Assembly: GCA_963826865.1 (NCBI GenBank)
Contig: CAWGYQ010000007.1
Span: forward strand, 8,605 to 72,604
Length of the DNA stretch: 64,000 nt
Direction: 5' to 3'
Source: an uncultured Acidobacteriota bacterium
GTDB taxonomy: Bacteria; Acidobacteriota; Vicinamibacteria; Vicinamibacterales; CAVPJW01
Shown here piece after piece: positions 33,272-60,564 of the stretch. Both the position numbers and the translations under genes were made by a program. Within the stretch, counting starts at the first letter, position 1, and every line of letters starts with the position of its first letter. The notes under the pieces were generated by a model. The model was not told where the DNA came from and searched no databases. It saw only the letters and a program-made list of their open reading frames with translations.

Positions 33272-34630
33272 GTGGCACCCTACTCTCCGATCGGTCGCGC
33301 GTCAGCCGATGCTGGTGACTGGATGAGATGGAGCGCAGTCGGAATCCAAGCCGCAATTGTCTTCGCGGCCGTCGTGCTCGTCGAGGGGTGCGCCCTGTGG
33401 CGGGTCGAACGGTACTACGGCCACCTCCTGAGAGGCAACGACGCGCAATTCTACTACGCGGCCACGCGGAGCCTTGTCGTTGGTCGAGACCTGAACATAT
33501 CGGACGACATTGTCCTGACGCCACATACCGACCCTTTCGATTTCGACCACGATGGCTATTTCGAAGAACTGCCGCGCGACAAGAGAGGCCAGATTCTTCA
33601 CAAGCGTCCGATCGGGCTCTCGATCATCGAGGCGCCGTGGCTTTGGGCTGCAGTCACTTGGGTTCCGGATCCGCGCGGCGACACGCGCGCGGTCGGGTAC
33701 AGCGTCACTGATATCCGGGTGGTCGCCTTCGGTCTCGCTCTCGCGGTCGCGGCCGGGCTCGCTCTGTTGTACGCACTGATTCGCCGATTGTCATCAGCCC
33801 CGTGGGCCATCTTTTCGGTGTGGTGTGCCTGGTTGGGCACCAGCCTGTTTGGTTATTCGACGGCCGTCATCTTCATGGCCCACGCAACGGCGTTCACCCT
33901 GGTGATTGCGACCGTGTTCGTGGCTGACAGTCTTCGGGGCGACGGTCGGACGAATCTCAAGTTGAGCGTCCTCGGCGCCCTGGTCGGGCTGCTCTATCTC
34001 GTCAGACCCCAGCAGGTTCTCCTCCTTTTGTTGCTTCTGCCATATTTCCTTCGCGTGTGGCAACGTGACCGACAAGTGTGGACGCAGGGCGCTGTCACAG
34101 GGGTGGCCTTCCTGATCATCGCGATTGGCTTTCAGGCGGCGGTGTACGCGGTGAGTTTTGGCGAGGGAATCATCAGCGGGTATTACGCGGTCGGTGAGAC
34201 GTTCGACTGGTTCCAGCCCAACTTCTTGAAAGTTCTCGCGGATCCCGCTCGCGGGCTGCTCGTCTTCTCGCCCATCGTCGTCGTGGCCTGCGCGGGCTAC
34301 ATTCTGAACTGGCGGCGCGTCCCGATGTTTGGCTGGGTGCTGCTCGCCCACGCCATTGTCCAGCTGTATGTGATTGCCGCGTGGTCGGGTCGTCTGCAGG
34401 GCGATTCATTCGGCGCCCGCATGTGGAGCGAGTGTGCAGGGATGGTCGCCGTCGGCGTCTCGCTGCTCGAAACCTCGGCCCCAGCCATTCGCCTCGCATG
34501 GGCCGTCGTCGCCACCGCGTGCGTTGGCTGGGCGAGCGCGCTCCTCATCGTCTACATGCAGCGCGGATTTTCCTTCTCCACCACGTACGGAGATCTTGTT
34601 CGCGCGGTCTTGGGCCTCGTAACCGGTTGA
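33272..34630 (+). CDS. Polytopic GT-C-like membrane glycosyltransferase (putative)
   Basis: Many TM segments; early periplasmic loop ND..YY..RSL..D; LVRPQ; FGAR. Confidence 0.55.
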   Translation: MAPYSPIGRASADAGDWMRWSAVGIQAAIVFAAVVLVEGCALWRVERYYGHLLRGNDAQFYYAATRSLVVGRDLNISDDIVLTPHTDPFDFDHDGYFEELPRDKRGQILHKRPIGLSIIEAPWLWAAVTWVPDPRGDTRAVGYSVTDIRVVAFGLALAVAAGLALLYALIRRLSSAPWAIFSVWCAWLGTSLFGYSTAVIFMAHATAFTLVIATVFVADSLRGDGRTNLKLSVLGALVGLLYLVRPQQVLLLLLLLPYFLRVWQRDRQVWTQGAVTGVAFLIIAIGFQAAVYAVSFGEGIISGYYAVGETFDWFQPNFLKVLADPARGLLVFSPIVVVACAGYILNWRRVPMFGWVLLAHAIVQLYVIAAWSGRLQGDSFGARMWSECAGMVAVGVSLLETSAPAIRLAWAVVATACVGWASALLIVYMQRGFSFSTTYGDLVRAVLGLVTG

Positions 34631-34740
34631 CAGATCCAGACCTTCACGCTGCCGACGTACAAATACCATCGATAGGGAGACCTGTTCACATCACAACAGT
34701 GCCGTCTTAGGCCTCCCCAAGCGAACGCCTCCTGCTGGTC

Positions 34741-35047
34741 GGAAGGCTCGATCACCTCGCCACTGTCTACGAGAAGTACACTGGTAAGATTGCGGTTGAG
34801 AATCTACGGCCGAGCTGGCTGATCTTCGTTCGGATTCCGGAAGACGACCTTCCAGGTTGCGGCAACGCGCACGGTCGATGTGATGGCAGGCTGGGCACAA
34901 GTTCGGTACAGTTACGGCGCAAGCGTCGAGGACGCCCTGCAGAAGCTTCAGTACGACCTGTCCTACATCAAGAACATGTCCCTGGCGCTCGATCTCTTCA
35001 TCATCTATTCGACGATCAAGACTGTTCTGGCGCGAAAGGGCGCCTGA
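34741..35047 (+). pseudogene. Remnant of a priming sugar-transferase paralogous to 45839..47221
   Basis: [33 protein letters not shown]...DV joined to [46 protein letters not shown], stop at 35047. Confidence 0.85.
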
Positions 35048-35050
35048 GCC

Positions 35051-35944
35051 ATGGCCGCCGTCGTGAACGCGATGACGGTAGACGTCGAGGACTATTTCCA
35101 GGTCAGCGCCTTCGACGACATCGTGCCGCGGGACGGGTGGGCAAGCCGTGAAAGCCGCGTGTGTGCGAACACCGAGCGTCTCATCCGCATCTTCGACGAC
35201 GCTGGTATCAAGGCGACCTTCTTTGTGCTGGGCTGGGTGGCCGATCGTTTTCCGGCGCTCGTGCGGACCATCGCCCGCGAACAGCATGAGGTGGCGTCGC
35301 ACGGTTATGGTCACCGGCTGATTTACGATCAATCGCCGTCAGAATTCCGCGAAGACATTCGACGCGCCAAGGACCTGCTCGAGTCGCTCGCAGAGAAGCG
35401 TGTGCTCGGCTTTCGGGCGCCAAGTTACTCGATCACGAGCCGCACGCTCTGGGCGCTGGATATTCTGGCCGAGGAGGGCTACGCCTACGATGCGAGCATC
35501 TTTCCGATCCGTCACGATCGCTACGGCATTCCCAGCGCCCCCCGACATGCTTTCCTCATCGAGCGGGGTGGACGGCCGCTGGTCGAAGTGCCGGCCTCGA
35601 CTGTGCGACTGGGCCGGCTGAACGTGCCGGTTGCAGGGGGCGGCTACTTCCGCATCTTCCCGTATTGGTGGACGTTCCGAGGCATCGCCCGGGTCAACCG
35701 CGTCGAGGGAAAGCCGGCCGTGTTCTATATCCATCCGTGGGAGATCGACCCCGACCAACCGCGCCTGCCGGCGGATGCGATCGGGCGGTTCCGCCACTAC
35801 AGGAATCTCGACAAGACCGAAGCGCGCCTGCGGCAGCTCGTGAGAGACTTTGCGTTTGCGCCCATCGATAGGATGGTCGCCAACGCCCGTCCGATCGACG
35901 CCAGCGGTCTCGCATCGCTTGCCGGCGCCAGCCAGGCTTCCTGA
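35051..35944 (+). CDS. Polysaccharide deacetylase, XrtA/PEP-CTERM-locus type
   Basis: NAMTVDVEDYFQV, HEVASHGYGH, FRAPS, GGGYFR, YIHPWEIDPDQP. Confidence 0.9.
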   Translation: MAAVVNAMTVDVEDYFQVSAFDDIVPRDGWASRESRVCANTERLIRIFDDAGIKATFFVLGWVADRFPALVRTIAREQHEVASHGYGHRLIYDQSPSEFREDIRRAKDLLESLAEKRVLGFRAPSYSITSRTLWALDILAEEGYAYDASIFPIRHDRYGIPSAPRHAFLIERGGRPLVEVPASTVRLGRLNVPVAGGGYFRIFPYWWTFRGIARVNRVEGKPAVFYIHPWEIDPDQPRLPADAIGRFRHYRNLDKTEARLRQLVRDFAFAPIDRMVANARPIDASGLASLAGASQAS

Positions 35945-35980: not shown

Positions 35981-36868
35981 ATGATTGATCTGCACATGCA
36001 TACGACTGCCTCGGATGGGTGCTGCAGCCCGACCGAGCTGGTTGGTCGCCTGCCCCGGGCGGGCATTACGGTCTTCAGCGTGACCGATCACGATACAACG
36101 GCAGGCCTCGTCGAATCGGCTGCCGCGGCGGTCCATGCCGGTCTCGAGTTCCTCCCCGGCACTGAGATCACTGCGGTCTATCAGGGACGCGACGTGCACG
36201 TTCTAGGGTATTTCATCGATCCAACGACGCCGGAACTGTGCCGCTTGCTCGCCGCGGGCCGTCAGAGTCGCGTGATTCGAGCCCGAGACATTGCCGCTCG
36301 GCTTGCGGCTCTCAACGTGCCCATAGACGTCGAGCGTGTGCTGGCTGCGGGCGGTGGCGCGGCAAGCGGCATTGCGACTGCTCGACCTGTTCTTGCACGA
36401 GCGCTGGTCGAGGCGGGGTACGTGAGCAGCATCCGTGAGGCCTTCGACCGATACCTGGGGGAGGGCAAGCCAGCGTACGTGCCCCGGCAGGGACGCTCGC
36501 CGTCCGATGTGGTCCAGGTGATCCGGTGCGCCGGCGGGGTCGCGTCTCTGGCCCATCCCGGAGTGCTCGGCCGCGACGAGCTGATCCCGCCGCTGGTCGA
36601 TGCCGGGCTGGGGGCTCTCGAGGCCTACCATGGCGACCACACCGCAGCGGACACCGGCCGGTACCTCGAACTCGCCCGGCAATACGGACTGGCGGTAACG
36701 GGCGGCTCCGATTATCACGGCGACGGCGTGCGCCGCGCTGAATGGCTGGGCGTCGTGGGCCTTCCGCCCGACGAGTACAAACGGTTCTGCGGTCGGGCTC
36801 GTCCGAAGCGATCCGAAGACAGGCCACCGCTTCCCGAGCGGGTGCCAAATCTTACCGAACTCGGCTGA
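35981..36868 (+). CDS. PHP-domain phosphoesterase (TrpH-like; candidate PAP phosphatase)
   Basis: DLHMHTTASDG, TDHD, AHPG, GGSDYHG. Confidence 0.88.
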   Translation: MIDLHMHTTASDGCCSPTELVGRLPRAGITVFSVTDHDTTAGLVESAAAAVHAGLEFLPGTEITAVYQGRDVHVLGYFIDPTTPELCRLLAAGRQSRVIRARDIAARLAALNVPIDVERVLAAGGGAASGIATARPVLARALVEAGYVSSIREAFDRYLGEGKPAYVPRQGRSPSDVVQVIRCAGGVASLAHPGVLGRDELIPPLVDAGLGALEAYHGDHTAADTGRYLELARQYGLAVTGGSDYHGDGVRRAEWLGVVGLPPDEYKRFCGRARPKRSEDRPPLPERVPNLTELG

Positions 36869-36916
36869 GACCGGACACTCCCTCCGCGCCAGCCGGTATG
36901 TGAGGACGAGACAGGC

Positions 36917-38666
36917 GTGACTTCTGGGACCGGCATGCTCGACACGAACGCACTCATTGCGCCGCACGGCGGAACTCTTGTGAATCTGCTGGGCGACGAG
37001 CCCCGCAGACTGCAGCTCCGGGAGGCGTCTCGGTCCTGGCCGTCATGGGACCTCACCGCCCGGCAGATGTGCGACCTGGAGCTGCTCATGGACGGCGGCT
37101 TCTCGCCGCTCACCGGATTCATGGGCCGCGAAGATTACGAATCGGTCTGTCGGACCATGCGGCTACAGAACGGCCTCCTGTGGCCCATGCCCATCACACT
37201 GGACGTGTCACCAGAATTTGGCCAGACGTTGACGCCTGGGGACACAATCGCGCTGCGTGATCCTGAAGGCGTCATGATCGCCGCGCTGGCCGTCGAGGAC
37301 GTCTGGACGCCCGACCGCGAGGCCGAGGCGGTCGCGGTCTTCGGAACCGCCAGCTCCGAACACCCTGGCGTGGCAGCGCTGCTCGGACACAATCGCACCG
37401 TCTATGTTGGCGGACGGGTGGAGGGACTTCAGCTTCCGCTCCATTACGACTATCCGTCGCTCAGAGCCACGCCAGCCGAGCTACGTGACGAGTTTGCGCG
37501 CCGCGGGTGGACCAGAATCGTCGCGTTCCAGACCAGAAATCCTATGCACAGGGCCCATCAGGAGCTCACGCGTCGGGCAGCCGACGAGGTCGACGCTCGT
37601 CTCCTGATTCACCCGGTCGTCGGGATGACGAAGCCGGGGGATGTCGATCACTACACCCGCGTCCGATGTTACCGCGCCGTCCTGTCAACCTATCCCCCCG
37701 ATCAGGCGCACCTCGCGCTCTTGCCGCTGGCCATGCGGATGGCCGGTCCGCGCGAAGCGGTGTGGCACGCGATCATCCGGAAGAATCACGGATGTACGCA
37801 TCTGATCGTCGGTCGCGACCATGCAGGTCCGGGACGCGATAGCGCCGGCACGCCGTTCTATGGTCCCTACGATGCCCAGGAGCTGCTGCGTCAACACGAA
37901 AAGGAGCTCGGTGTCGGCATGGTACCGTTCCGTCAGATGGTGTACGCCGTGGACTACGCCCGGTACTTTCCCGAGGATGCCGTACCCGAAGGCGCCAAGG
38001 TCCTGGACATTTCGGGCACCGAGCTCAGGCGACGACTCGCCAGCGGGGGAGAGATTCCGTCCTGGTTCACCTTTCCCGCAGTCGTGACCGAGCTGCGGTC
38101 GACGCACCCTCCGCGCAGCGCCCAGGGCATCACGGTGTTCTTCACCGGTCTTTCCGGCTCGGGCAAGTCCACCATTGCCAACGCACTGCTCGTGAAGCTC
38201 CTGGAACGGGGAAGCCGTCCCGTGACGCTGCTGGACGGCGACCTGGTGCGCAAGCACCTCTCGTCGGAACTGGGGTTCTCGAAGGAGCACCGCGACATCA
38301 ACATCCGGCGCATCGGCTATGTCGCCTCCGAGGTCACCAGGAATGGCGGCATCGCCCTGTGCGCACCCATCGCGCCCTATGACCAGGTGCGGAAGGAAGT
38401 GCGGCGCATGATCGAGCCGCTCGGCGCCTTCATCCTGGTCTTTGTGGCGACCCCTCTGGAGGTGTGCGAGGCTCGCGACCGAAAGGGGCTGTACGCGAAG
38501 GCGCGCGCAGGCATCCTGCAGCAGTTCACGGGAATCTCCAATCCGTACCGAAGAACCCGTCGATGCCACCCTGACGATTCAGACCACCCAGCTGTCGCCC
38601 GGGCAGGCCGCTGATCGAATCATCGGGCTGCTCGAGCAGGAGGGATACGTGGCGCCTGTGGCGTGA
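36917..38666 (+). CDS. Bifunctional sulfate adenylyltransferase/adenylylsulfate kinase (Sat-CysC), apparent frameshift near 38548
   Basis: FQTRNPMHRAH, GRDHAG, GLSGSGKS, LDGD, RKGLY; the C-terminus continues in another frame to a stop at 38666. Confidence 0.93.
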
Positions 38667-38795
38667 TCCGCCCGTCAGGGCTCTGGACGTGCCAGGCCCC
38701 CTGGAAGTCCCCTGTTCGGCCACCGCATCTCTCCAACCACCCCTCGGCGCCTGCAGGTAGTACACTGGGCGGCAGACTGAAGCATCCATACGCGC

Positions 38796-38826
38796 GCCAG
38801 GAAGACTTTTGTCAGCGATTCCTGGC
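38796..38826. promoter_or_regulatory. Candidate upstream activator sequence (inverted repeat)
   Basis: gccaggaa-15-ttcctggc, about 120-150 bp upstream of the sigma-54 site. Confidence 0.4.
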
Positions 38827-38944
38827 TTTTCAGGGCGCCCACGCCGGAGAACGCCGAGAGCCGCACACCCAGAGCCGGTTCTCAACGATGAGCTAAGGCA
38901 CTTATCTTCAATCAGTAACGGGTTTTTGGCCCCCTGGCACCTAA

Positions 38945-38960
38945 TGGCTGGCTCTTTGCA
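38945..38960 (+). promoter_or_regulatory. Sigma-54 -24/-12 promoter candidate for the EPS operon
   Basis: TGGCTGGCTCTTTGCA (GG-N10-GC, TTGCA). Confidence 0.6.
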
Positions 38961-39149
38961 AACCGATCCCCCGCGTCTTCGAAAGGGCTGAACGAGCTCC
39001 CCCGAACGTGGACATCCCTTCCTCAAGCGCGGATACGACTCCCTGGGTTTGCAGGTCGGTTACCGGGCTGGTTCTGGCAGGTGGGCGGTGCTCGCGGTTG
39101 GCGAGCGCTGGGGTGCCGGCGGCCGTGGTGGACGGCTCAAGGAACGGTC

Positions 39150-40217
39150 ATGAGAAACAACGGTCAGAGTGAGTTGGTTGGCGCGAGCGCCTCGATGATC
39201 GAATTGAAGCAGGAGATCGCGCGGGTTGCGCGCTCCGAGGCGAAGGTGCTGATCACAGGCGAGAGCGGCGTGGGCAAGGAGCTGGTTGCTCAAGCCATCC
39301 ACGTGCAGAGTCCCCGAAGCAGTCGGCCATTCATCGCGGTGAGTTGCGCCGGCTTGCCGGAGACCCTCCTGGAGTCGGAGCTGTTCGGGCACGTCAAGGG
39401 CAGCTTTACCGGCGCGTACCGTGACAAGCCTGGGAAGCTCGAGGTGGCGGATCAAGGCACGATGTTCCTGGACGAAATCGGCGAGATGAGTCTTCGGATG
39501 CAGGGTCTTCTGCTGCGATTCCTTGAAACAGGCGAACTCCAGAAAGTGGGCGCCGATCGGGTGGGAGGTCGCGTCGACGTGCGCGTGGTGGCGGCGACCA
39601 ACCGTAACCTCCGCGAGATGATCACGCAGGGTCTCTTCCGGGAAGACTTGTTCTATCGCCTGAACGTCATTCATCTCGTCGTCCCGCCGCTCAGAACCCG
39701 CAAGGAAGACGTGCTGGAGCTGACCGTGCACTTCCTCGCGCAGTTCACGCGGAACAACGGCTATGTCGTGCGGGGGATTTCGCCCGAGGCGCTTTCGGCG
39801 CTGAGCGACTACTTCTGGCCCGGCAACGTCCGCGAGCTGGAGAATGTCGTCGAACGTCTCGTGGTCACCGGTCGGAACGAGGTCGTCACGATTGATGACC
39901 TGCCGACGGAGGTTCGTTCGGCTGATGGCATGAGCGTTCGGCCGAAGCGCGAGCGCCGGCGGACGGTGGCTGACGACCTGTACAAGCGCCTGCTCGACGA
40001 GCGCGAGTCGTTCTGGACAACGGTGTACCCTCTGTATATGCGGCGTGAGATCACGCGATCCAATGTCCGCGACCTCATCCGGAAGGGCCTCGAGGAGGCG
40101 CGCGGCAACTACAAGATCGTCGTCAAGCTCTTCAACATGGAGCAACGCGACTACAAGCGGTTCCTGAACTTTCTGCGCAAGCACGACTGCCAGCTTCCGT
40201 TCAAGGAATACAGGTAG
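39150..40217 (+). CDS. Sigma-54-dependent transcriptional activator (bEBP) lacking an N-terminal sensory domain
   Basis: GESGVGKE, ESELFGHVKGSFTGA, FLDEIGEM, DLFYRL, WPGNVRELEN; the AAA+ domain starts about 8 aa after the ATG. Confidence 0.9.
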   Translation: MRNNGQSELVGASASMIELKQEIARVARSEAKVLITGESGVGKELVAQAIHVQSPRSSRPFIAVSCAGLPETLLESELFGHVKGSFTGAYRDKPGKLEVADQGTMFLDEIGEMSLRMQGLLLRFLETGELQKVGADRVGGRVDVRVVAATNRNLREMITQGLFREDLFYRLNVIHLVVPPLRTRKEDVLELTVHFLAQFTRNNGYVVRGISPEALSALSDYFWPGNVRELENVVERLVVTGRNEVVTIDDLPTEVRSADGMSVRPKRERRRTVADDLYKRLLDERESFWTTVYPLYMRREITRSNVRDLIRKGLEEARGNYKIVVKLFNMEQRDYKRFLNFLRKHDCQLPFKEYR

Positions 40218-40222
40218 CTCCC

Positions 40223-40864
40223 ATGACAAGCCGAATCCTCGTGATTCTCGCGATTGCCGGCGTTATCAGCGTGCCCGGCGCCTTTGCGCAGTCGAGCGCG
40301 CCTTCATCACCGGCCAGCCCGCCTGCACCGGCAGTGACCCCACCGCCGGCGGCCGCGCCTTCAGGGGCGTCGGCGCTGCCCGACGACTATGTGATCGGCG
40401 CCGAGGACGTCCTGGGCATTGTGTTCTGGCGGAATCAGGACCTGACGGTGGATGTGACGGTCCGTCCCGACGGGAGGATTTCTCTACCGTTGCTCAACGA
40501 CATCCAGGCCGCAGGTCTCACGCCCGAACAACTGAGGCTGAAGTTGGTGGAGGCATCCGCTCGCTACCTGGAGGATCCAACCGCGACGGTCGTTGTCAAA
40601 CAAATCAACAGTCGCAGGGTGTACATTACGGGCCAGGTCGCGCGTCCCGGTCCCTACCCGTTGATGACCCCCACCACGGTGCTGCAGCTGTTGGCAATCG
40701 CCGGCGGTTTGAGCGAGTACGCCGACTCCAAGCACATCGTCGTCATGCGCACGGAGGACGGCAAGCAGTTGTCGTTCCCGTTCGACTACAAGGCCATCAT
40801 CAAGCGTAAGAATTTGCAGCAGAACATCGTGCTCAAGCCCGGTGACACGGTCGTTGTTCCCTGA
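40223..40864 (+). CDS. Polysaccharide biosynthesis/export protein (Wza/OPX-like, short)
   Basis: YVIGAEDVL, VRPDGRISLPL, SLBB domain, LKPGDTVVVP. Confidence 0.9.
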   Translation: MTSRILVILAIAGVISVPGAFAQSSAPSSPASPPAPAVTPPPAAAPSGASALPDDYVIGAEDVLGIVFWRNQDLTVDVTVRPDGRISLPLLNDIQAAGLTPEQLRLKLVEASARYLEDPTATVVVKQINSRRVYITGQVARPGPYPLMTPTTVLQLLAIAGGLSEYADSKHIVVMRTEDGKQLSFPFDYKAIIKRKNLQQNIVLKPGDTVVVP

Positions 40865-40881
40865 GGACGACGAGGCATTCA

Positions 40882-42234
40882 GTGACGACCCGAATTCTCG
40901 TCTGCCGTGTCTTGGCGGGTGCCGCCGTTGTCGTGGGCGTCAGTCAGAACGCGTCCGCGCAGCAGCAGGCGCCGCCTCCGCCGCAGTCTCCGGAGCGCGC
41001 ACCGCAACGCCCGTACGACGGCGTGTTCGGGCCTCGCCCCGGGGCTGGTCCACATGCGCCGGGTGAGCGTCATACGCTCGATCTCATGATGAACGTGACC
41101 GAAGGGTACGACGACAACGTGCTGGCCGACCAACAGGGAGTCGGCGGGGGCTCACCGTCGCCACTGCATCAGGTCGGCGGGTTCTTTACGTCGGCCAGCG
41201 CTTCGCTCAACTATGCGCGGCCAGGCGAGCGGGTGGGGTTCGGCGCGAGCGGGGGGGCGACGTATCGCTACTACCGGGGGTTCGAACGTCTTACGGGGCC
41301 GAGTTACTACGGAGGTGCCGGGATCTCGACGACGTTCCGCAACACGGCCTTCACGCTGAACCAGAGCGCTACCTATTCGCCCTTGTACTATTTCGGGGTG
41401 GTCCCCGTTCTCGGCACGCCGCCCCCGGGTCAGGTCCCACTTCCCAGCCCCGATTCGGCGGTCGGGCAGCTCGAGGCCGTGACGCTGAACACCGGCGTGG
41501 GTGCAAATACGGAGCTCTCGCGTCGCTCGTCGCTCTATTTTGAATACGATTTTCAGAGCGAGGTGTTTTCGGGCGACGTCTCGACGGTGCGGTCACAACA
41601 TGCCAGCGCCGGGTACCGGCGCGCGCTGACGCGGAACACCGGATTGCGAATAGGCTACGGATACCGGGAAGGCCGGTATAGCCTCGTCGAGTCGGGTGTG
41701 GAGCCAATCCGGCAGCACGACCTGGACGTCGGCGTGGACTATGGGCGCTCGCTGTCGCTGACGCGCCAAGTCACGTTTAGATTCAGCACGGGTTCGGCCA
41801 TCGTCCAGACCCAGTCGGACACGCAGTATCGGGTCGTGGGGAACGCGTCGCTGAACGCCGCGTTCAAGCGCACCTGGAATGCGAACTTGACCTACGACCG
41901 CGGAATTCAGTTCGTAGGCGGTTTCGAAGAGCCGTTCTTTTCGGACTCCTTGATTGCGTCCGTTGGAGGGTTGTTGTCGCCACGCCTGTCTTACCGCGGA
42001 GCCGTCAGCGGTTCACTCGGATCGGTGGGCCTGGACGGAAGCTCGGCGTACGATACCGCCGTCGTGTCGAACCGCCTCCAGTACACGTTGACCCGCTACG
42101 CGGCCTTGGACGCAGAGCACGTCTACTATCAGTATGACTTCGATGACACGATAGCGCTGCCTACGAGCATGCCCCAGAACCTGGGCCGCCAGGGCGCTCG
42201 CGTGGGACTGTCGGTCTGGCTTCCGGTCTTTTAG
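40882..42234 (+). CDS. EPS-locus outer-membrane beta-barrel protein
   Basis: Signal peptide, GYDDNV, Tyr/Gly-rich amphipathic strands, C-terminal Phe; sits between the export and chain-length genes. Confidence 0.75.
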   Translation: MTTRILVCRVLAGAAVVVGVSQNASAQQQAPPPPQSPERAPQRPYDGVFGPRPGAGPHAPGERHTLDLMMNVTEGYDDNVLADQQGVGGGSPSPLHQVGGFFTSASASLNYARPGERVGFGASGGATYRYYRGFERLTGPSYYGGAGISTTFRNTAFTLNQSATYSPLYYFGVVPVLGTPPPGQVPLPSPDSAVGQLEAVTLNTGVGANTELSRRSSLYFEYDFQSEVFSGDVSTVRSQHASAGYRRALTRNTGLRIGYGYREGRYSLVESGVEPIRQHDLDVGVDYGRSLSLTRQVTFRFSTGSAIVQTQSDTQYRVVGNASLNAAFKRTWNANLTYDRGIQFVGGFEEPFFSDSLIASVGGLLSPRLSYRGAVSGSLGSVGLDGSSAYDTAVVSNRLQYTLTRYAALDAEHVYYQYDFDDTIALPTSMPQNLGRQGARVGLSVWLPVF

Positions 42235-42245
42235 TGAGGTGAGTC

Positions 42246-43832
42246 GTGTTACCAGGCAAGAATTACACCGCGGCTGATATCACGCGGGTTCTCCGGCGCA
42301 GATGGAAGTTTCTGGCCCTGGTGTGGGCGCTGGCCGCGGCGGCGACGCTGTTGATCACAGACAGACTGCCGGACTGGTATCGCTCGGAAACGCTGATCCT
42401 GGTCGTTCCCCAGCGGGTTCCCGAATCCTATGTGCGATCCACCGTGACCACACGGATCGAGGATCGCTTGCAGTCGATCAGCCAGCAGATCTTGAGCCGG
42501 ACCAGACTGGAGCGTGTGATTCAGGACTTCGACCTCTATCAGCGCGAGCGCACGCTCAAGCCCATGGAGGATGTCGTCGAGCAGATGCGCAAGGACATTG
42601 ACGTGCAGATCGTGAAGGGCGATGCCTTCCAGATCAGCTATGTGTCCAAGGAACCGAGGACCGCGATGCGCGTCGCGGAGCGGCTCGCGTCCCTGTTCAT
42701 CGAAGAGAACCTCCGCGATCGGGAGGTGCTCGCACAGGGCACCAGCGAGTTTCTCGATTCCCAGCTGGCCGACGCGCGCCGCCGGTTGATCGAGCACGAG
42801 AAGAAGCTCGAGGCTTACCGTCGCCAATTCAGCGGGGAGCTCCCCACGCAGGTGACGGCGAATCTGGCGGCGCAGCAGAATGTCCAGGTGCAGCTTCAGA
42901 CACTCACCGAAGCGCTCGACCACGATCGCGAGCGGCGGCTGGTACTCGAGCGGGCGCTCGCCGAAGCGAGCCTGGCGGTGCCTCCCAGAACCGTTCCAAC
43001 TCCGACGGATGACGGCCGCACGGCCGGTGGGGTAGCGCCACTTGCAGGCGGGACGGCGGCCCAGCAGCTCGCCGAGGCGAACCGGTTCTTGCGGGCGTTG
43101 GAGCTCCGCCTCAAGCCGGAGCACCCCGACATCATCCAGACGAAACGGACGATTCGTGAGCTGCAGAAAAAAGCCGATGCCGAGGCGCTCGAACGTCCAA
43201 TCTCCCCCGAGCTGGCTTCCGATTCGGCCACGGTCGATCCCGAAGAAGCGCAGCGCCGCCGCCGCATCAGCGAGCTTCGCAGCGAGCTGCGTAGCGTCGA
43301 AGCCCAGATGGCGGACCGTCAGGCCGAGGAGAAGCGACTGCGTGCCCAGAATACGGTGTATCAGGCCCGGCTCGAGGCGACGCCCACACGGGAGTCCGAA
43401 TTGATCGAGCTCACGCGCGACTACGAAACGCTGCAGGGGGCTTACACGAGCCTGTTGGCGAAGAAGGAAGATGCGCAGGTGTCGGCCAATCTCGAACGCC
43501 GCCAGATCGGCGAGCAGTTCAAGGTTCTCGATCCGGCACGCCTGCCGGAACGGCCTTTCAGTCCGAAGCGCTTGCAGTTGAACCTTTTCGGTCTGCTGTT
43601 CGGCCTCGGTCTCGGAGTCGGGCTCGTCGCCCTGATGGAGGTGCGAGATTCGACGCTCAAGACTGACGAGGACGTCGTGACCACGCTGAATCTGCCCGTC
43701 CTGGCCACGATTCCCACGATGCTGACGACAATCGAGCGGAAGCGCCAGCGCCGTCGGCGGATGTTGATTTCGGCAACGACCACAGCCACGATCATCGTGG
43801 CGGCGATTGTATTCTGGTCGCTGAAGTCCTGA
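42246..43832 (+). CDS. Polysaccharide chain-length determinant / co-polymerase (Wzc N-terminal-like)
   Basis: Two TMs flanking coiled coils; HPD; DPARLPERP.SP. Confidence 0.88.
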   Translation: MLPGKNYTAADITRVLRRRWKFLALVWALAAAATLLITDRLPDWYRSETLILVVPQRVPESYVRSTVTTRIEDRLQSISQQILSRTRLERVIQDFDLYQRERTLKPMEDVVEQMRKDIDVQIVKGDAFQISYVSKEPRTAMRVAERLASLFIEENLRDREVLAQGTSEFLDSQLADARRRLIEHEKKLEAYRRQFSGELPTQVTANLAAQQNVQVQLQTLTEALDHDRERRLVLERALAEASLAVPPRTVPTPTDDGRTAGGVAPLAGGTAAQQLAEANRFLRALELRLKPEHPDIIQTKRTIRELQKKADAEALERPISPELASDSATVDPEEAQRRRRISELRSELRSVEAQMADRQAEEKRLRAQNTVYQARLEATPTRESELIELTRDYETLQGAYTSLLAKKEDAQVSANLERRQIGEQFKVLDPARLPERPFSPKRLQLNLFGLLFGLGLGVGLVALMEVRDSTLKTDEDVVTTLNLPVLATIPTMLTTIERKRQRRRRMLISATTTATIIVAAIVFWSLKS

Positions 43833-43846
43833 TTGCTGGTGGAGTG

Positions 43847-44827
43847 ATGTACGCACGGTTCTTTGGTCTCAACGAGTCGCCGTTCGAGCTCACCTCGAAC
43901 CTTCGCTACCTGTTCCTGACGCCCAAGCATCGGGCGGTGTTGAGCACCCTTCAGTACGGGATCAGCTCACGGAAAGGCACGACGCTGCTCGTCGGCGAGG
44001 CCGGCACGGGAAAGACGACGCTGATCCGGGCGGCTCTGGCCGCGCAGCGCGACGAATCAGCCAGTTGCATCTATGTCAGCAATCCGACGTTGACCCGCGA
44101 GGAGTTCTTCGAGTTTCTCGCGCGTGGGTTCTCGCTGGGACCGTTGGCGGCGCAATCTAAAACCGTCTTTCTGGCCGAGCTCGAGCGTGCCCTGCGACGG
44201 CAGGTCGACGAGGGCCGTGTGACCGCTCTCGTGATCGACGAGGCGCAGAGCCTCTCGTACGAGCTGCTCGAAGAGGTTCGCCTTCTGGCGAACATGGAGA
44301 CCGATTCGGGAAAGCTGCTGCCGGTCGTGCTGGCGGGACAGCCCGAACTGGCCGATCGGTTGAACGAGCCGTCACTCCGGCAGCTGAAACAGCGCATTGC
44401 CCTTCGATGCGACCTGCGGCCCCTGGACCTGCGCGAAACGGCCGCGTATATCGCGGCGCGACTGCGATCGGCGGGTGGTGACGGACGCGACGTGTTTACC
44501 CGCGAGGCTGTCGTCGCGATTCACGAGCAGTCACGGGGCATTCCGCGAACCATCAGCGTGATCGGCGACAACGCGCTCATCAACGGATTCGCCGTCGGCC
44601 GCCGGCCTGTGGGTCACGATCTGGTCATGGAAGCGTGCCGCGATCTTGATTTCAACCAGGACCCGGCTCCCGCGCTCGCCGACCCGATCACCGACGCGCC
44701 GGAGCGAGTGGCCGTGCCGACCGCGATCCCGGCGAGACCCCGGGACGAGGCGAGTGTTCGGAAGACACCGGAGCTGCCCTCGCTCTTCAGTCAAGTCAAC
44801 AAGCGCCGGCGTTTCTCATTTTTCTGA
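43847..44827 (+). CDS. ExeA-like AAA ATPase (PEP-CTERM-locus type)
   Basis: YARFFGLNESPF, GEAGTGKT, IDEAQ, LAGQPEL, SRGIPR. Confidence 0.9.
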   Translation: MYARFFGLNESPFELTSNLRYLFLTPKHRAVLSTLQYGISSRKGTTLLVGEAGTGKTTLIRAALAAQRDESASCIYVSNPTLTREEFFEFLARGFSLGPLAAQSKTVFLAELERALRRQVDEGRVTALVIDEAQSLSYELLEEVRLLANMETDSGKLLPVVLAGQPELADRLNEPSLRQLKQRIALRCDLRPLDLRETAAYIAARLRSAGGDGRDVFTREAVVAIHEQSRGIPRTISVIGDNALINGFAVGRRPVGHDLVMEACRDLDFNQDPAPALADPITDAPERVAVPTAIPARPRDEASVRKTPELPSLFSQVNKRRRFSFF

Positions 44828-44864
44828 TCATGAGCACGACTCTCGTGAGGCCGTTGAGGAGTAG

Positions 44865-45809
44865 ATGTCTCGCATAGAAGAAGCACTGAAGAAGTCTGGC
44901 GCAACGCTGAAGCTGCCCAGTGAAGCGCCGCGGCAGGCCCCCATCGATCTGGAACAGTTCCCGGCCGGACGTTCGGAGCCCGTCCCCGCGCCCCCGCTGG
45001 TCGATGGTCTGGGAATCTACGCGCCCGAGCGCGAAGCGCCTGAGGAACCGGTTCACTCCGTGCCGCCTCTGACGACGCCGATGTTTCCTGAGGTCGCGAC
45101 GACCATGGCGACCTTCAGCGACGCATACGGTGAGCGGCTCGTCATCTCGACGGCGACGCCTGCCGCACCGGTCGAACAGTACCGCCGGCTGGCGGCGACC
45201 CTCCATCAAGCGCAGATCGATCACGGTATCAAGACGGTCATGGTGGCCAGTGCGCTCGCAGGCGAAGGCAAGACCTTGACGGCGACGAATCTGGCGCTGA
45301 CGCTGAGCGAATCCTATCGACGCCGGGTGCTGTTGATCGATGCCGATCTGCGCCGCCCGATGATCCACGAGGTCTTCAAGGTCCCAAACGTCTCTGGCTT
45401 GTCGGAGGGAATCAACGCGTCACGGGATCAGAAGCTGTCACTGGTCGAGCTCTCTCCCCATCTCTCGGTGCTCACCGCAGGGCGACCCGAGGTGGATCCG
45501 ATGAGCAGCCTGACGTCCGAACGCATGCGGCGGCTGCTCCAGGAGGCCTCGGAACGATTCGAGTGGGTCGTCCTCGACACCCCGCCGGTGGGGTTGTTGT
45601 CGGATGCCACGCTTCTTGCGGACATGGTGGATGTATCCATTCTCGTGATTGCCGCCGGCGTGGCTCCGTTTGAAGCGGTCAGCAAAGCCGTGGCTGCCCT
45701 CGGACGAGACAAGATCATCGGCGTGGTGCTCAACAGGGTGGAGCAGCGCCGGCTCTCGAACGGAGAGTACTACCACCGTTATTACTCGAACGACGCCGCG
45801 CGCCGGTAG
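44865..45809 (+). CDS. CpsD/CapB family tyrosine autokinase
   Basis: GEGKT, LIDADLRRP, LDTPP, C-terminal Tyr cluster EYYHRYY. Confidence 0.92.
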   Translation: MSRIEEALKKSGATLKLPSEAPRQAPIDLEQFPAGRSEPVPAPPLVDGLGIYAPEREAPEEPVHSVPPLTTPMFPEVATTMATFSDAYGERLVISTATPAAPVEQYRRLAATLHQAQIDHGIKTVMVASALAGEGKTLTATNLALTLSESYRRRVLLIDADLRRPMIHEVFKVPNVSGLSEGINASRDQKLSLVELSPHLSVLTAGRPEVDPMSSLTSERMRRLLQEASERFEWVVLDTPPVGLLSDATLLADMVDVSILVIAAGVAPFEAVSKAVAALGRDKIIGVVLNRVEQRRLSNGEYYHRYYSNDAARR

Positions 45810-45838
45810 ACCGCCACGCGGCAAGGGAGACATGTGGG

Positions 45839-47221
45839 ATGGGTTCAGGCGTCACGATCCGCTCGGTCGCGCTGATCGCATTCGAGACCCTGCTCATCGT
45901 GGCCGCCGTCTTTGTCAGCGCCTGGATTCGGCTCGGGCGTGGCGCCTGGAGTCTGTTCACGTTCGAAGGCTCTCTCAAAGTCTTCCTGATTGCGGTCGTC
46001 TGCCAGCTCTGTCTCTACCTGGGCGATCTGTACGACCTGCGAAGCATCAAGGATCGCCGCGATCTGTTCGTTCGCGCGGTCCGCGCCCTCGCGCTGACAT
46101 CGTTCGTGCTGGCAGGCGTCTACTACTGGCTGCCGAGCCTCATGATCGGGCGCGGCGTGTTCGTGCTTGCCTCGTTCCTCGTCATCACGGCGGTCACCGG
46201 ATGGCGTCTCGCGTTCGAATGGCTGAGCCGCAGCCTGGGTCCGAGAGAACGGCTCCTTCTCGTGGGCGTCAACGCCGCCGCCATCGGCCTGGTTCGTGAG
46301 CTGTTCGATCGCAGACACGACCTGGGCGTGGAAATCGTCGGGTTCGTGGACGCGGATCCGGCCCGAGTCGGATCGCCGGTGCTGAATCCGGGAGTGATTG
46401 GCACGATCGACGAGATTCCCGCGATCGTTCGTGCCCGTTCGGTGGATCGCGTCGTGGTGAGTCTGGCGGATGCCAGGGGCAAGCTGCCCATGGACAAGCT
46501 GCTGGAGATGAGGCTCGATGGCGTGAGGTTCGATCATCTGGCCTCGGTCTACGAGGAGTACACGGGCAAGATCGCCGTCGAAAACCTTCGTCCGAGCTGG
46601 CTGATCTTCTCGACCGGGTTTCGAAAGACCGCGGCCCTTCGTGGCCTGAAGCGCGCATTCGATCTGACGGTGGCGAGCGTGGGAGTGGTGCTGGCCCTGC
46701 CCGTGATGGGCCTGATAGCCGTCGCATTGAAGCTCTCGTCGCGCGGACCCGTGTTCTACCACCAAGAGCGGGTCGGGCTCCAAGGCCGCAAGTTCACGGT
46801 CCACAAGTTTCGATCGATGAGACCGGACGCCGAAGCGGTCACCGGCGCGGTCTGGGCGAGCAAGGCCGGCGACGATCGGGTGACACCGATTGGAGGATTC
46901 CTCAGACGGGCCCGCCTCGACGAGCTCCCGCAACTCTGGAACGTTCTGAAAGGCGATATGAGCATGGTGGGCCCGCGACCCGAACGCCCGGAGTTCATCC
47001 AGCGGCTGAGCAGCGTCATTCCGTTCTACGGCCAGCGACATGTCGTGCGCCCGGGGCTCACGGGCTGGGCGCAAGTCCAGTACACCTACGGCGCCAGCGT
47101 CGAAGACGCCTTCGAGAAGCTTCAGTATGACCTCTACTACGTCAAGAACATGTCGATCGCGCTGGATTTGTTCATCCTGTTCTCGACGATCAAGACCGTT
47201 CTTCTGAGCCGCGGGGCCTAG
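45839..47221 (+). CDS. Priming polyprenyl glycosylphosphotransferase (sugar transferase)
   Basis: [46 protein letters not shown]. Confidence 0.95.
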
Positions 47222-47222
47222 C

Positions 47223-48260
47223 GTGACGCGACCTCACGAGCTCGAGGTGTCGAGTCGCTGGACCGAAGAGGAGTGGGACGAGTTCGTGAACCAGAGCCCC
47301 GACGCCTCCGGCTATCACGATCACCGGTGGAGGCGCGTATTCGAAAATGCATTCGGCCACGAGACCGACTACCTCGTGGCCCGCGCTGAAGCACAGATTG
47401 TGGGCGTCTTGCCGCTCGTCATCATGCGGAGCTGGCTGTTTGGCCGCTTTATGGTGTCGTTGCCCTTCGTCAACTACGGCGGCGCGCTGGGCGACGCCCC
47501 TGCCGTGCGCGCGCTCGTCGAGACGGCGGTGGAGCGATGTCGCGCGCGGCGGTTGACGTACCTCGAACTCAGACACGTGTCGCGGCGATTTCCGGAATAC
47601 CCGGTGAGGCAGCACAAGGTCGCGATGCTGCTGGCCCTCGAGTCGAATGAGACGTCCATGTGGAAGCGGCTCGATCACAAGGTGCGAAACCAGGTTCGCA
47701 AGGCGGAGAAGAGCGGCCTGCGCGCGGAGGCGGGCGGTGCGGAGCTCGTCTCAGATTTCTATGAGGTCTTCGCCGAAAACATGCGCGACCTGGGCACGCC
47801 AGTCTATTCGCGGCGTTTCTTCGAGCAGATGCACGCGCAGTTTCCGGGCAGCGTCGAGACGGTGCTGGTGCGACTGGGAGACAAGGCCGTGGCAGGAGCC
47901 ATCAGCTATTCACATCATGAGCGGCTCGAGGTTCCCTGGGCCTGCTCGCTGAGGTCCCATCGCGCGATGTGCCCCAACATGCTGCTGTACTGGACGCTGA
48001 TGACACGCGCCATCGCCGCGGGCAAGACGACTCTTGATTTTGGCCGCTCAACACCTGAAGAAGGCACCTACCACTTCAAGCGGCAGTGGGGCGCCGTGCC
48101 GCAGAGTCTGTCCTGGGAGTACCCGTATCTGGCCGGCCGCCAGCTTCCCGATCAAAGCCCGAAGAACCCGAAGTTCAGGACCGGCATCGAGCTCTGGAGG
48201 CGGCTGCCCGTGCCGGTCGCGACGCTTCTTGGCCCTTCCATCGTCCGAGGCATTCCCTAA
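47223..48260 (+). CDS. FemAB-related GNAT protein (XrtA/PEP-CTERM-locus type)
   Basis: SLPFVNYGG, RNQVRKA, MRDLGTP, DFGRS, FKRQWG. Confidence 0.88.
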   Translation: MTRPHELEVSSRWTEEEWDEFVNQSPDASGYHDHRWRRVFENAFGHETDYLVARAEAQIVGVLPLVIMRSWLFGRFMVSLPFVNYGGALGDAPAVRALVETAVERCRARRLTYLELRHVSRRFPEYPVRQHKVAMLLALESNETSMWKRLDHKVRNQVRKAEKSGLRAEAGGAELVSDFYEVFAENMRDLGTPVYSRRFFEQMHAQFPGSVETVLVRLGDKAVAGAISYSHHERLEVPWACSLRSHRAMCPNMLLYWTLMTRAIAAGKTTLDFGRSTPEEGTYHFKRQWGAVPQSLSWEYPYLAGRQLPDQSPKNPKFRTGIELWRRLPVPVATLLGPSIVRGIP

Positions 48261-50620: not shown

Positions 50621-50666
50621 GGTCAGTCTCGGGACGCGAAGCAGAGAGCGCTGCGCGACGGTCCGC

Positions 50667-50682
50667 TGCAACAGCTGTGCCT
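50667..50682 (-). promoter_or_regulatory. Sigma-54 -24/-12 promoter for the G8 gene
   Basis: AGGCACAGCTGTTGCA, close to the consensus TGGCAC-N5-TTGCA, about 47 nt before the ATG. Confidence 0.7.
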
Positions 50683-50779
50683 CTCGAGCGCCGATAGATT
50701 CGTGTGAACAGGGCGCGATCGGTCGCGTGCGACCGTCCAAATCGTAATTAGGATTACAGTATTCCGGGAACGTTACACG

Positions 50780-59304: not shown

Positions 59305-60564
59305 GGGTTGCCGCTCGGCTGAAGCTCGAATGCGCCCGCGTCGGGCGTGTTTGGATCGCGCGGGCTCTTGTCGAAGTCGTCGTCGACGTCGGCCAGCGGC
59401 ACGCCGGCTCCAACGGCCGGAACGGTCGGTCCGGCGAGATGCAGATCGGCCGCTGCCGCATCGACGAACCACGGGTGAGCGGCTGTGGTGAGATTGCCCT
59501 GCTGGTCGGCCTGGCCGCCGTCGCGGAGGGTGATAGCCCGATTGGTCAGGTTGTTCCGGACTCTGACGCTCGTGCAGCGGGAACCGGATACTGATGGACC
59601 AGGGAAGCTGGCCTTCGACCAGGACGGTGTTGTGATCGATCGCGAGGTCGCGTGCGGCGTTCGCCTCAATCCCTTCGTCGCCCCACGAGTTGAGGTTCCA
59701 GACGACGTTGTTGCGGATTCGACCGCCCTGATGATCGAAGTATCGTTCGCCGTCGCGTACAGTTTTGTTCACCGGACCCAAACCGAATGCGATTCCCCGG
59801 GAGGAATCGACAATCAGATTGCGCTCGACGATGGTGTTCTGCGAGTTGGCCCAGAAGAGTACCGCGGGGCCGGCGGCGCGGCGATTCTCGGGTCCGCGAA
59901 TCCTCGAAAACGTGTTATCGCGTACGATCCATCCTCGGCCAGAGAGGACGTCGATGCCATCCGTGTAGTCCCCCGGGGCGTGATCCGTGTACTCGATTCG
60001 CGAACACGCCAGCAACCCATCGTCTGGTCCTTGCCCATCGGAGCCGACGCTGCCCTTGATGAGCTGCTGTCCGGTGTTGACCACCCGGATGTTCTGCATC
60101 ACGAGATTCGAGGCTCCGCGCTCGCCACGAACCTGCACGCCGTGAAAGCGCACGTACCCGACTGTCAGGTGTGCCAGCGTGACGTGGCTCGCACTGATCG
60201 ACAGGGCGACGCCCACGTTCGGTTCCTGCATTCCGTCGCCGCGCACGATGACCTTGTCACGATCACCGCTTCGGCCCCGAATCACGACGCGGTCCGTCGT
60301 GATGTCCAGCATGCGGTCGAGGCGATACTCTCCGTCTTCCAGCAGAATCGTGGTTCCTGGTTTCGCTTCCGCCACCCGCCGGCGAAGTTCGCCCATGTTC
60401 CTGACCGTGCGAGTGATCGACGTCTGCGGCGGGGTCCACACGCAACGCGGATCTGTCACCGGATCCTGCGGGGCACCGGACGGCGAGGTACCGTGCGCAG
60501 CTACGACGGTTGCAAGCGCGGCAACGATCGACAAGCCTAGGCCGGATCCGCGGCGACGGTACAT
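59301..60564 (-). CDS. Secreted right-handed parallel beta-helix protein, apparent frameshift near 59580
   Basis: Signal peptide, PGTTILLEDGEY, repeated xxRNNxx strands; the shifted frame ends FVD...DLHL...PDAGAFE, stop at 59301. Confidence 0.75.

Follow-up and report, generated by a model that had tools for sequence, protein, structure and literature searches.

A candidate PAPS-supply and pAp-removal cassette beside an XrtA-type exopolysaccharide locus of an uncultured acidobacterium

Passages in two articles (PMC9410882 and PMC8268124) present Cv1693 of Chromobacterium violaceum, known from the structures 2YB1 and 2YB4, as a 3',5'-nucleotide bisphosphate phosphatase of the PHP family, and the first of them presents RNase AM of Escherichia coli (YciV/TrpH; structure 7UG9) as a 5'-3' exoribonuclease and deFADding enzyme. 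Here we describe a gene for a protein of this family in a 64,000-nucleotide (nt) stretch of DNA from an uncultured Acidobacteriota bacterium (the window; G+C 0.62-0.67), whose positions are used below unless another contig or locus is named. The gene lies between those for a polysaccharide deacetylase and for a fused ATP sulfurylase/adenosine 5'-phosphosulfate (APS) kinase, Sat/CysC, at the edge of an exopolysaccharide (EPS) locus. We consider the PHP and Sat/CysC genes to be a candidate cassette for supplying 3'-phosphoadenosine 5'-phosphosulfate (PAPS) and removing adenosine 3',5'-bisphosphate (pAp), which would serve sulfation, most likely of the glycan made by the neighbouring genes. To this reading as a whole we give an even chance of being correct.

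PAPS-supply genes that stand beside sulfotransferase genes, as a second-purpose module together with genes for surface or signal molecules, are familiar from the rhizobial nodPQ-nodH and Xanthomonas raxPQ-raxST systems. XrtA/PEP-CTERM exopolysaccharide systems, the type found in the window, were reportedly set out by Haft et al. in 2006. The xss cluster of Synechocystis PCC 6803, which is associated with the sulfated EPS synechan, includes two sulfotransferase genes, and the words PAPS, CysC and APS kinase are absent from the text of the paper on it (PMC8205485). Sulfated EPS is well documented in cyanobacteria; according to the same paper, it had not been reported from other bacteria. Regarding the disposal of pAp, passages in PMC8268124 name three phosphatase families (CysQ, NrnA and the Cv1693 type) and state that sulfotransferases and PAPS reductase are inhibited by pAp, which the latter enzyme also produces. 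Our literature search found no paper on a PHP-type pAp phosphatase inside a PAPS cassette (Cummings et al. 2014, outside the search, might discuss context), and none on sulfation, PAPS or sulfotransferases in acidobacterial or PEP-CTERM/exosortase EPS loci.

In the scheme that we propose, Sat/CysC would make PAPS from sulfate by way of APS, as its family membership suggests. The PHP protein would hydrolyse the pAp left by a sulfotransferase and thereby relieve product inhibition, a role to which its family, the gene neighbourhoods of its clade and the lack of a recognisable CysQ all point. Within this bacterial family, the cassette would serve sulfation rather than sulfur assimilation, and the sulfate would most likely be passed to a glycan that adjacent polysaccharide genes produce, on the pattern of the relative G002 (see below), in which genes for five sulfotransferases, a flippase and glycosyltransferases accompany the cassette.

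The three-gene arrangement and its conservation

Three co-directional open reading frames (ORFs) follow one another at the left end of the XrtA/PEP-CTERM EPS locus:

35051..35944, plus strand: XrtA-system polysaccharide deacetylase of the DUF3473 type, hereafter deAc (NCBIfam TIGR03006, 395.3 bits, cut-off 276.2)
35981..36868, plus strand: PHP phosphoesterase of 295 amino acids (aa), Cv1693/RNase AM (TrpH/YciV) family, candidate pAp phosphatase
36917..38666, plus strand: fused ATP sulfurylase/APS kinase, Sat/CysC; the ORF as assembled stops at 38614

The gaps between these ORFs measure 36 nt (deAc to PHP) and 48 nt (PHP to sat/cysC), and no terminator-like sites were found between the three genes, which probably constitute a single operon or transcription unit. 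The ORFs, the gaps and the domain models confirm a preliminary description of this DNA, in which PHP and fused Sat/CysC genes were said to follow directly after a polysaccharide deacetylase gene. The deAc protein matches the Pfam families DUF3473 (6.6e-49) and Polysacc_deac_1 (1.2e-20), and Sat/CysC scores 864.6 bits against NF004040 (cut-off 669) and contains the Pfam domains PUA_2, ATP-sulfurylase and APS_kinase. The Sat/CysC translation also carries the strings QTRNPMHRAH, GRDHAG and GLSGSGKST, the last of which we take to be the kinase P-loop.

The bacterial family comprises three genomes: the one that holds the window (G000; a 4.28-Mb assembly, 91% complete), one of the same genus with about 94% nucleotide identity to it (G001), and one of the only other genus (G002; 98% complete). 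The cassette adjoins the XrtA deacetylase gene in all three of these genomes but nowhere else among the cassette loci, and thus the expectation that PHP and sat-cysC would be linked to EPS genes in relatives is borne out within the family. In G002, the same mreB-rodA-rng neighbourhood includes genes for a sigma-54 activator, an ATPase, a kinase, EpsB and deAc, followed by those for a membrane Sulfatase-domain protein, PHP, a DASS permease, Sat/CysC and a radical-SAM/methyltransferase group. Next in line is a cluster of Wzx, GT2, GT4 and UGDH genes, in which five Sulfotransfer_3 genes lie at a distance of 15-27 kb from Sat/CysC. Across 201 genomes of the order, fused Sat/CysC orthologues (at least 67% identity) are patchily distributed, with any match at E <= 1e-40 present in 59 genomes, and at least five of the 201 (G000, G001, G002, G165 and G009, among the matches listed) have Sat/CysC and PHP genes no more than 10 kb apart.

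Purifying selection acts on codons 1-544 of sat/cysC and on the core of the PHP gene, for which a comparison of G000 with G001 gave ratios of nonsynonymous to synonymous substitution rates (dN/dS) of 0.075 and 0.21, respectively; the values for deAc and for the sulfite reductase gene (Sir) are both 0.10. Nine public sequencing runs contain 5-9% of the sampled words of this DNA, and one metatranscriptome holds two 151-base pieces identical to deAc, which do not demonstrate transcription.

A sulfate-linked clade of PHP proteins

Pfam assigns the PHP protein only to the general PHP domain (PF02811; 33.3 bits, cut-off 26.4). The best NCBIfam model is that of the 3',5'-nucleoside bisphosphate phosphatase (NF041577; 192.6 bits, cut-off 400), compared with 166.2 bits for RNase RNM (cut-off 375), and the best matches among solved structures are 2YB1 (Cv1693; E 3.6e-39, residues 2-252) and 7UG9 (E. 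coli RNase AM; E 1.6e-38). All ligands of the trinuclear metal site, as listed in a part of PMC9410882 (HxH, D, H, E, H, H, DxH), are kept and are invariant across 35 aligned PHP proteins. No residues that separate the sulfate-linked from the Fur-linked proteins defined below were seen in the alignments, and both groups keep the metal-ligand motifs.

Relatives of the PHP gene, in most cases one per genome, occur in 35 of 41 sampled relatives and in 166 of the 201 genomes of the order. We examined 45 PHP loci, of which 35 represent the window and the matches of the 41-genome sample (minus a partial second match in G019, and G031), and 10 were picked later as top-scoring or second copies and therefore form a non-random set. 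At 35 of the 45 loci (for example, L027:6406-8744), the gene order is ErpA - Fur/rubrerythrin - PHP - (ABC ATPase), an arrangement that is strongly conserved across the order. This grouping of genes for an ErpA-like Fe-S protein, a Fur/rubrerythrin fusion, PHP and an ABC ATPase might reflect an iron or oxidative-stress regulon. All 10 PHP proteins encoded outside this arrangement form one clade in a maximum-likelihood tree of the 45 sequences (ultrafast bootstrap 96; Shimodaira-Hasegawa-like approximate likelihood ratio test, SH-aLRT, 94), with no Fur-linked sequence inside it. This tree supersedes an earlier one of 35 sequences, in which four sulfate-linked proteins grouped weakly (SH-aLRT 53).

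Seven of the 10 clade members have a sulfate context. The order in the window and in G001 is deAc-PHP-Sat/CysC, and one of the two copies in G002 is followed by a DASS permease gene and then Sat/CysC. The same series follows a small sulfotransferase gene in G165; G009 has PHP - DASS - Sat-like/CysC - CysD - CysNC; the first copy in G042 is arranged as PHP - DASS - CysD - CysNC; and a small sulfotransferase gene precedes PHP in G122. As for the other three members, the gene in G056 lies near a DASS-type transporter gene, that of G019 is on a 2.7-kb contig, and the first copy in G173 (L066:8349-13696) is located beside GT4 and AsnB genes in a genome without a Sat/CysC match at E <= 1e-40. Because the neighbours are Sat/CysC in some loci and CysD-CysNC in others, the same PHP-DASS pair has been joined to two non-homologous ATP-sulfurylase systems, and this pairing is the strongest argument that the clade is likely to work in PAPS metabolism.

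The PHP gene of the window is the only tblastn match of its family in G000. At the counterpart of the Fur-linked site (G000:C1:297686-300395), which PHP has vacated, the ErpA and Fur/rubrerythrin genes are followed by a 158-aa ORF of no known family and then the ABC gene, and G002 has both the Fur-linked and the sulfate-linked copy. Among 80 PHP loci from metagenomes, 61 are Fur-linked, two are sulfate cassettes and 17 have no informative neighbour (15 of these on contigs shorter than 2 kb). The best PHP match in these contigs is only 58% identical, and so no further members of the bacterial family were gained. Three sulfate-linked proteins score 185-193 bits on the pAp-phosphatase model versus 159 for the one Fur-linked copy scored, a modest difference. 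No CysQ is recognisable in G000, where the sole Inositol_P protein reaches 83.9 bits against the CysQ cut-off of 228.8 and scores as SuhB/HisN (201.6 and 162 bits).

The protein might instead act mainly as an RNase AM-type 5'-3' exoribonuclease or nanoRNase in general RNA processing, in which case its sat/cysC neighbourhood would be unrelated to pAp. The structural match to 7UG9 is nearly as good as that to Cv1693; RNase AM and Cv1693 share a fold and active site, as a passage in PMC9410882 states; and the sole family member in this genome, where the near-universal Fur-linked copy is missing, probably covers the role of that copy too. However, the repeated linkage of the clade to two sulfate-activation systems and to sulfotransferases speaks against this explanation, as does the better score that the protein obtains with the pAp-phosphatase model than with that of RNase RNM. 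We consider a mainly RNA-directed role to be unlikely, while noting that pAp and RNA roles are mutually compatible.

A very different assignment would make the protein a phosphotyrosine phosphatase of the CpsB/Wzb-like kind, acting together with the XrtA-associated tyrosine autokinase encoded at 44865-45809. Parts of PMC10816263 and PMC2364625 describe PHP-superfamily tyrosine phosphatases encoded in EPS or capsule loci, and the clade member beside GT4 and AsnB genes in G173 would suit such a function. Nevertheless, the best family and structure matches of the window protein are all of the Cv1693/RNase AM type, Pfam gives the general PHP domain only, and clade members occur in sulfate cassettes that are not in EPS loci. 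We regard this assignment as extremely improbable.

The predicted substrate thus remains pAp. The existence of a distinct Cv1693/RNase AM paralog clade that travels with two unrelated sulfate-activation systems is a result in its own right, and it provides, to our knowledge, the first genomic-context argument that this PHP family may act as the pAp phosphatase of sulfation pathways in organisms without CysQ. It also yields a simple rule for annotating these PHP genes as Fur-linked or sulfate-linked.

Sulfation, assimilation or decay

Pfam and NCBIfam scans of the window revealed no reductive sulfur genes (cysH/cysIJ), in agreement with the preliminary description, which had noted their absence near the cassette. 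The only PAPS_reduct, sulfite-reductase and sirohaem genes of G000 are on contig C8, unlinked to the cassette, in the following region:

G000:C8:161600-165540 (loci L004 and L020): decayed sulfate-reduction cluster

In an alignment with G001, cysH has lost codons 1-158 to a clean 473-bp deletion, cysP breaks off after codon 77, and Sir occupies two separate frames, next to intact sirohaem genes. No cysTWA orthologue and no CysD were found in G000, whose single PAPS_reduct match is the cysH fragment. The cysH gene of G001 is intact and passes PAPS-reductase models (NF002537, 242.5 bits, cut-off 154), and G002 yielded no PAPS_reduct match. Thus, with cysH lacking its 5' portion in G000 and unmatched in G002, one of the three family genomes has an intact reductive route for PAPS or APS, and Sat/CysC and PHP are retained in all three.

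These observations bear on the possibility that the cassette is devoted to housekeeping assimilation, with Sat/CysC as the sole sulfate-activating enzyme, PHP clearing the pAp that PAPS reductase also produces (as stated in a passage of PMC8268124), and the position beside EPS genes being a historical accident. Such a role accords with the presence of only one Sat and one APS kinase in the genome, with the sulfite reductase and sirohaem genes, and with the intact cysH of G001, which has the same cassette. It accords poorly with the damage to cysH and cysP and the missing cysTWA in G000, with the lack of a PAPS_reduct match in G002, with the fact that the cassette adjoins cys genes in none of the three family genomes, and with the company that the same PHP clade keeps with sulfotransferases in other families. 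The broken cysH in G000 and the missing match in G002 weaken the assimilation reading, which we judge doubtful. The preliminary description had held that its proposal would suffer if Sat/CysC were the only copy and were not EPS-linked in relatives; the copy is indeed the only one, and the linkage to EPS genes exists.

Alternatively, sulfate activation and sulfation might be in the process of being lost, such that sat/cysC is an early pseudogene and PHP remains functional as the sole copy of its family. Relative to G001, G002 and G018, sat/cysC has an extra C at 38548/38549, near its 3' end, which shifts the stop codon from 38666 in the undisturbed frame, the end coordinate given in the preliminary description, to 38614. 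Immediately upstream of deAc, a second gene is damaged:

34717..35047, plus strand: remnants of a second priming glycosyltransferase gene, Bac_transf/EpsB-like (blastn against G001)

Deletions of 811 bp and 385 bp relative to G001 have left only fragments of it in the 420 nt upstream of deAc, in which the remaining frame encodes the conserved C-terminus and ends with a stop at 35045-35047. The gene is intact in G001 (453 aa) and directly precedes deAc in G001 and G002. The deletions in the cys cluster, the absence from G000 of sulfotransferase-bearing segments of G001 (see below), and the lack of a DASS permease in the cassette, unlike those of G002, G165, G009 and G042, are likewise compatible with erosion. 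On the other hand, the dN/dS value for codons 1-544 of sat/cysC speaks against decay, and of about 583 codons the insertion alters the final 38 only. Moreover, the insertion may be an assembly error, because other genes of G000 are also split by frameshifts (those for GGT, an AsnB-like protein, a PcRGLX-like protein and Sir), and G001 has splits of its own. Public contigs built from four runs gave short pieces only, none of which covers 38548/38549. Erosion is, in our estimation, quite unlikely to be the full explanation.

With sulfation again as the preferred function, we searched for the enzyme that would use the PAPS. The window ORFs have no Pfam match to Sulfotransfer_1, 2, 3 or 4 or to Stf0, and none was found in the flanks, the 20 kb after the window and the 8.7 kb before it, where only ORFs selected by G+C content at third codon positions were scanned. 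The suggestion that Sulfotransfer genes might be encountered beyond the 64 kb is not borne out by these flanks. Across the 91%-complete assembly of G000, PF13469 identified one Sulfotransfer_3 gene (C10:316556-317641, 362 aa), which lies outside the EPS genes, and PF00685 had no match in G000. Searches of G000 with PF03567, PF17784 and PF09037 were also negative, although these blanks are weak because the controls gave no match in any genome. Our own profile hidden Markov model (HMM), built from seven sulfotransferases of relatives, recovered nothing but the C10 gene from 33,249 six-frame ORFs. Three more sulfotransferase genes are present in G001, all in segments that G000 lacks, and a sugar-nucleotide epimerase/dehydratase gene lies next to one of them.

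Several proteins were considered as hidden sulfotransferases and set aside for lack of resemblance, namely the polytopic membrane protein encoded at 33272-34630, the outer-membrane-type protein at 40882-42234, and the products of 52510-55211, which are pieces of a frameshifted PcRGLX/GH127-like gene. The 209-aa ORFs directly before Sat/CysC in loci L089 and L112 have signal-peptide-like starts and match neither the sulfotransferase HMM nor sulfotransferase sequences. The membrane Sulfatase-domain protein was rejected as a component in G000, where it has no close homolog and only 25-30% matches to ordinary sulfatase domains. The gene for this 687-aa protein adjoins the PHP-DASS-sulfate cassette in two unrelated records, G002 (L011:13454-15517) and L226 (8986-10926), whose proteins are 44% identical. 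On C10, the sulfotransferase gene is accompanied by a 155-aa ORF and a gene for an ASST-type arylsulfotransferase, an enzyme that is PAPS-independent (G000:C10:316553-319838; L019:9554-12839, minus strand). That this pairing passes cytoplasmic sulfate on to an acceptor outside the cytoplasm is pure speculation.

Taken together, the following points weigh against a sulfation cassette. The window and its scanned flanks are devoid of recognisable sulfotransferase genes, the single one in the genome is unlinked to EPS genes, and the additional ones of G001 are in segments that G000 lacks. Sat/CysC is the sole ATP sulfurylase and sole APS kinase of G000 and has its last codons out of frame as assembled, and the EpsB-like gene upstream of the cassette is fragmentary. 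In G001, which has the same cassette, cysH is intact, and so the cassette there must also feed assimilation. The PHP protein scores far under both NCBIfam cut-offs, which makes it a family-level relative and not an equivalog by the NCBI threshold, and sequence cannot fix its substrate, because RNase AM belongs to the same family and has the same active site. The context of the first PHP copy in G173 does not fit a simple pAp story, and a possible NrnA-like DHH/DHHA1 ORF is located on contig C3. Finally, no PHP gene was found within 10 kb of any of 80 Sat/CysC loci from other lineages (Acidobacteriota, Verrucomicrobiota, Actinomycetota, Gemmatimonadota and others, with many short contigs).

Neighbours within 10 kb of these 80 loci were counted by tblastn with our own query set. 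Genes for EPS export, kinase, priming transferase or deacetylase functions were present at 11 loci, sulfotransferase genes at nine, and cysH at one. A Pfam scan (E <= 1e-8) of eight of the 11 EPS-linked loci (L108, L125 and L126 were left out) found a sulfotransferase gene in one, L090, and no recognisable one in the other seven. L090, on a contig of a Terriglobales metagenome-assembled genome (MAG; DATBYM010000057.1, 4080-20965), combines Sat/CysC, Sulfotransfer_1, GT2 genes and a TauE-like exporter with a DUF3473 deacetylase gene and a gene for a D-glucuronyl C5-epimerase C-terminal domain, and hence resembles a heparosan-modification set in an acidobacterium. Several Acidobacteriota lineages have a different recurrent set, absent from G000, in which fused Sat/CysC is accompanied by a Sulfotransfer_3-like protein of about 209 aa and two tandem Phosphodiest proteins of about 700 aa that belong to the alkaline-phosphatase superfamily, often together with DUF4202 (L014:8445-16034, L015, L016, L063, L072, L079, L081, L122 and L136).

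On balance, the comparative context supports well the reading of PHP and Sat/CysC as a putative unit for donor supply and by-product removal, with the activity of PHP predicted from its relatives. This part of the glycan-sulfation module that was originally proposed can be retained, given the sulfate context of seven of the 10 clade members and the lack of CysQ, but the locus does not supply the sulfotransferase that the full module requires. Because the locus has no transferase gene and the cassette shows wear, EPS sulfation in this organism is plausible only. The further proposal of deacetylation followed by N-sulfation is speculation without direct support, its sole parallel being L090.

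A bolder version would hold that this bacterial family makes a sulfated XrtA-dependent EPS, possibly N-deacetylated and then N-sulfated in the manner of glycosaminoglycans, using a portable donor cassette and a dedicated PHP pAp-phosphatase paralog, and that an unrecognised sulfotransferase family performs the transfer where no Sulfotransfer gene is present (G000 and seven of the eight other EPS-linked loci). We view this as a long shot. As for wider interest, a donor-supply cassette tied to an XrtA locus would render EPS sulfation in soil acidobacteria testable, and this would bear on metal binding, water retention and the sulfatase-based turnover of soil organic matter.

The exopolysaccharide locus and comparison with described systems

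The EPS locus that had been supposed to surround the cassette is real and, by its marker models, of the XrtA/PEP-CTERM type. Additional features of the window are as follows:

33272..34630, plus strand: polytopic, hydrophobic membrane protein of 452 aa with no Pfam or NCBIfam match (86% identical in G001, at the same position)
38945..38960, plus strand: sigma-54-type promoter-like site, TGGC-N7-TTGCA (consensus match only)
39081..48260, plus strand: core XrtA/PEP-CTERM EPS genes (Pfam and NCBIfam)

The region is bordered upstream by mreBC, pbp2, rodA and rng. ESM Atlas matches of the membrane protein are acidobacterial hypothetical clusters, one of which has PMT_2 on 11% of its members, and the protein may be GT-C-like. 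The sigma-54-like site is the top-scoring site of the 38600-39090 spacer and lies 121 nt upstream of the gene for the sigma-54 activator. The hint is weak, because the pattern has two matches in the window versus 0.88 expected, and 23 of 100 shuffles reach two. As such, the site suggests that the export operon may be transcribed separately from the three genes of the deacetylase unit.

The core region encodes the sigma-54 activator, a Poly_export/SLBB exporter, a 450-aa outer-membrane-type protein, a chain-length determinant, an ATPase, the tyrosine autokinase, a TIGR03013 priming transferase (459.8 bits, cut-off 393.35) and a FemAB-family protein (TIGR03019; 376.7 bits, cut-off 260.35). The locus also includes glycosyltransferases, an O-antigen-ligase-like protein and a match to TIGR03087 (348.2 bits, cut-off 316.65). 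Past the window end it continues with a GT4, an XrtA amidotransferase, a Wzm/Wzt ABC transporter, PrsT (334.6 bits, cut-off 312.2), exosortase A (TIGR03109, 231.7 bits, cut-off 208; G000:C7:84014-84931) and a second sigma-54 activator. Exosortase A and the associated markers all score above cut-off, which defines an XrtA/PEP-CTERM EPS locus; the XrtA-associated models of NCBIfam do not match PHP or Sat/CysC.

Other genes of the region were noted in passing. Within the EPS locus, 48272-50806 (minus strand) encodes an 844-aa protein with G8 and CEMIP-type beta-helix domains, a candidate secreted glycan-binding or glycan-degrading enzyme. A PcRGLX/GH127-like glycanase gene is in three pieces (52510-55211, plus strand), an asparagine-synthase-like gene in two (60564-62394, minus strand), and a gamma-glutamyltranspeptidase gene in two (G000:C7:6355-8060); these splits suggest single-base indel errors of assembly or real decay. 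A gene for an FGE-sulfatase (formylglycine-generating enzyme-like) protein adjoins a CotH-kinase-family gene at 1239-3591, and its presence indicates that the organism matures sulfatases.

In comparison with described systems, the PHP protein resembles Cv1693 in that the latter is its best structure match, shares its metal-ligand motifs and corresponds to its best NCBIfam model. It differs in falling well short of the equivalog cut-off, in being encoded in a probable operon with sat/cysC, and in having an activity that is predicted. Directly after the AHPG motif, where Cv1693 and RNase AM have Arg, the window protein has Val, and none of the 35 aligned PHP proteins has Arg. RNase AM has the same fold and trinuclear metal site; unlike it, the window protein is encoded in a sulfate-activation context and not at a housekeeping site, and an RNA substrate is without evidence here. 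CysQ (inositol-monophosphatase family) and NrnA (DHH family) perform the same pAp-clearing job that we propose for PHP, with folds unrelated to it. In L134, from a Longimicrobiales MAG, a CysQ-like Inositol_P gene is next to Sat/CysC within an EPS cluster, a layout analogous to that of the window.

The nodPQ and raxPQ genes encode enzymes of the CysD/CysN-CysC type and are accompanied by a known sulfotransferase and, so far as is known, by no PHP phosphatase, whereas the window combines a Sat-type fusion with PHP and has no local sulfotransferase. As in the xss system, a bacterial EPS locus would be linked to sulfation, and in G002 sulfotransferase genes occur among those for glycosyltransferases, Wzx and polysaccharide co-polymerase; unlike xss, the window locus has donor genes but no sulfotransferase. 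There is also correspondence with the XrtA/PEP-CTERM systems, of which the deacetylase, exporter, chain-length determinant, ATPase, kinase, priming transferase, FemAB protein, amidotransferase, PrsT and XrtA are all present.

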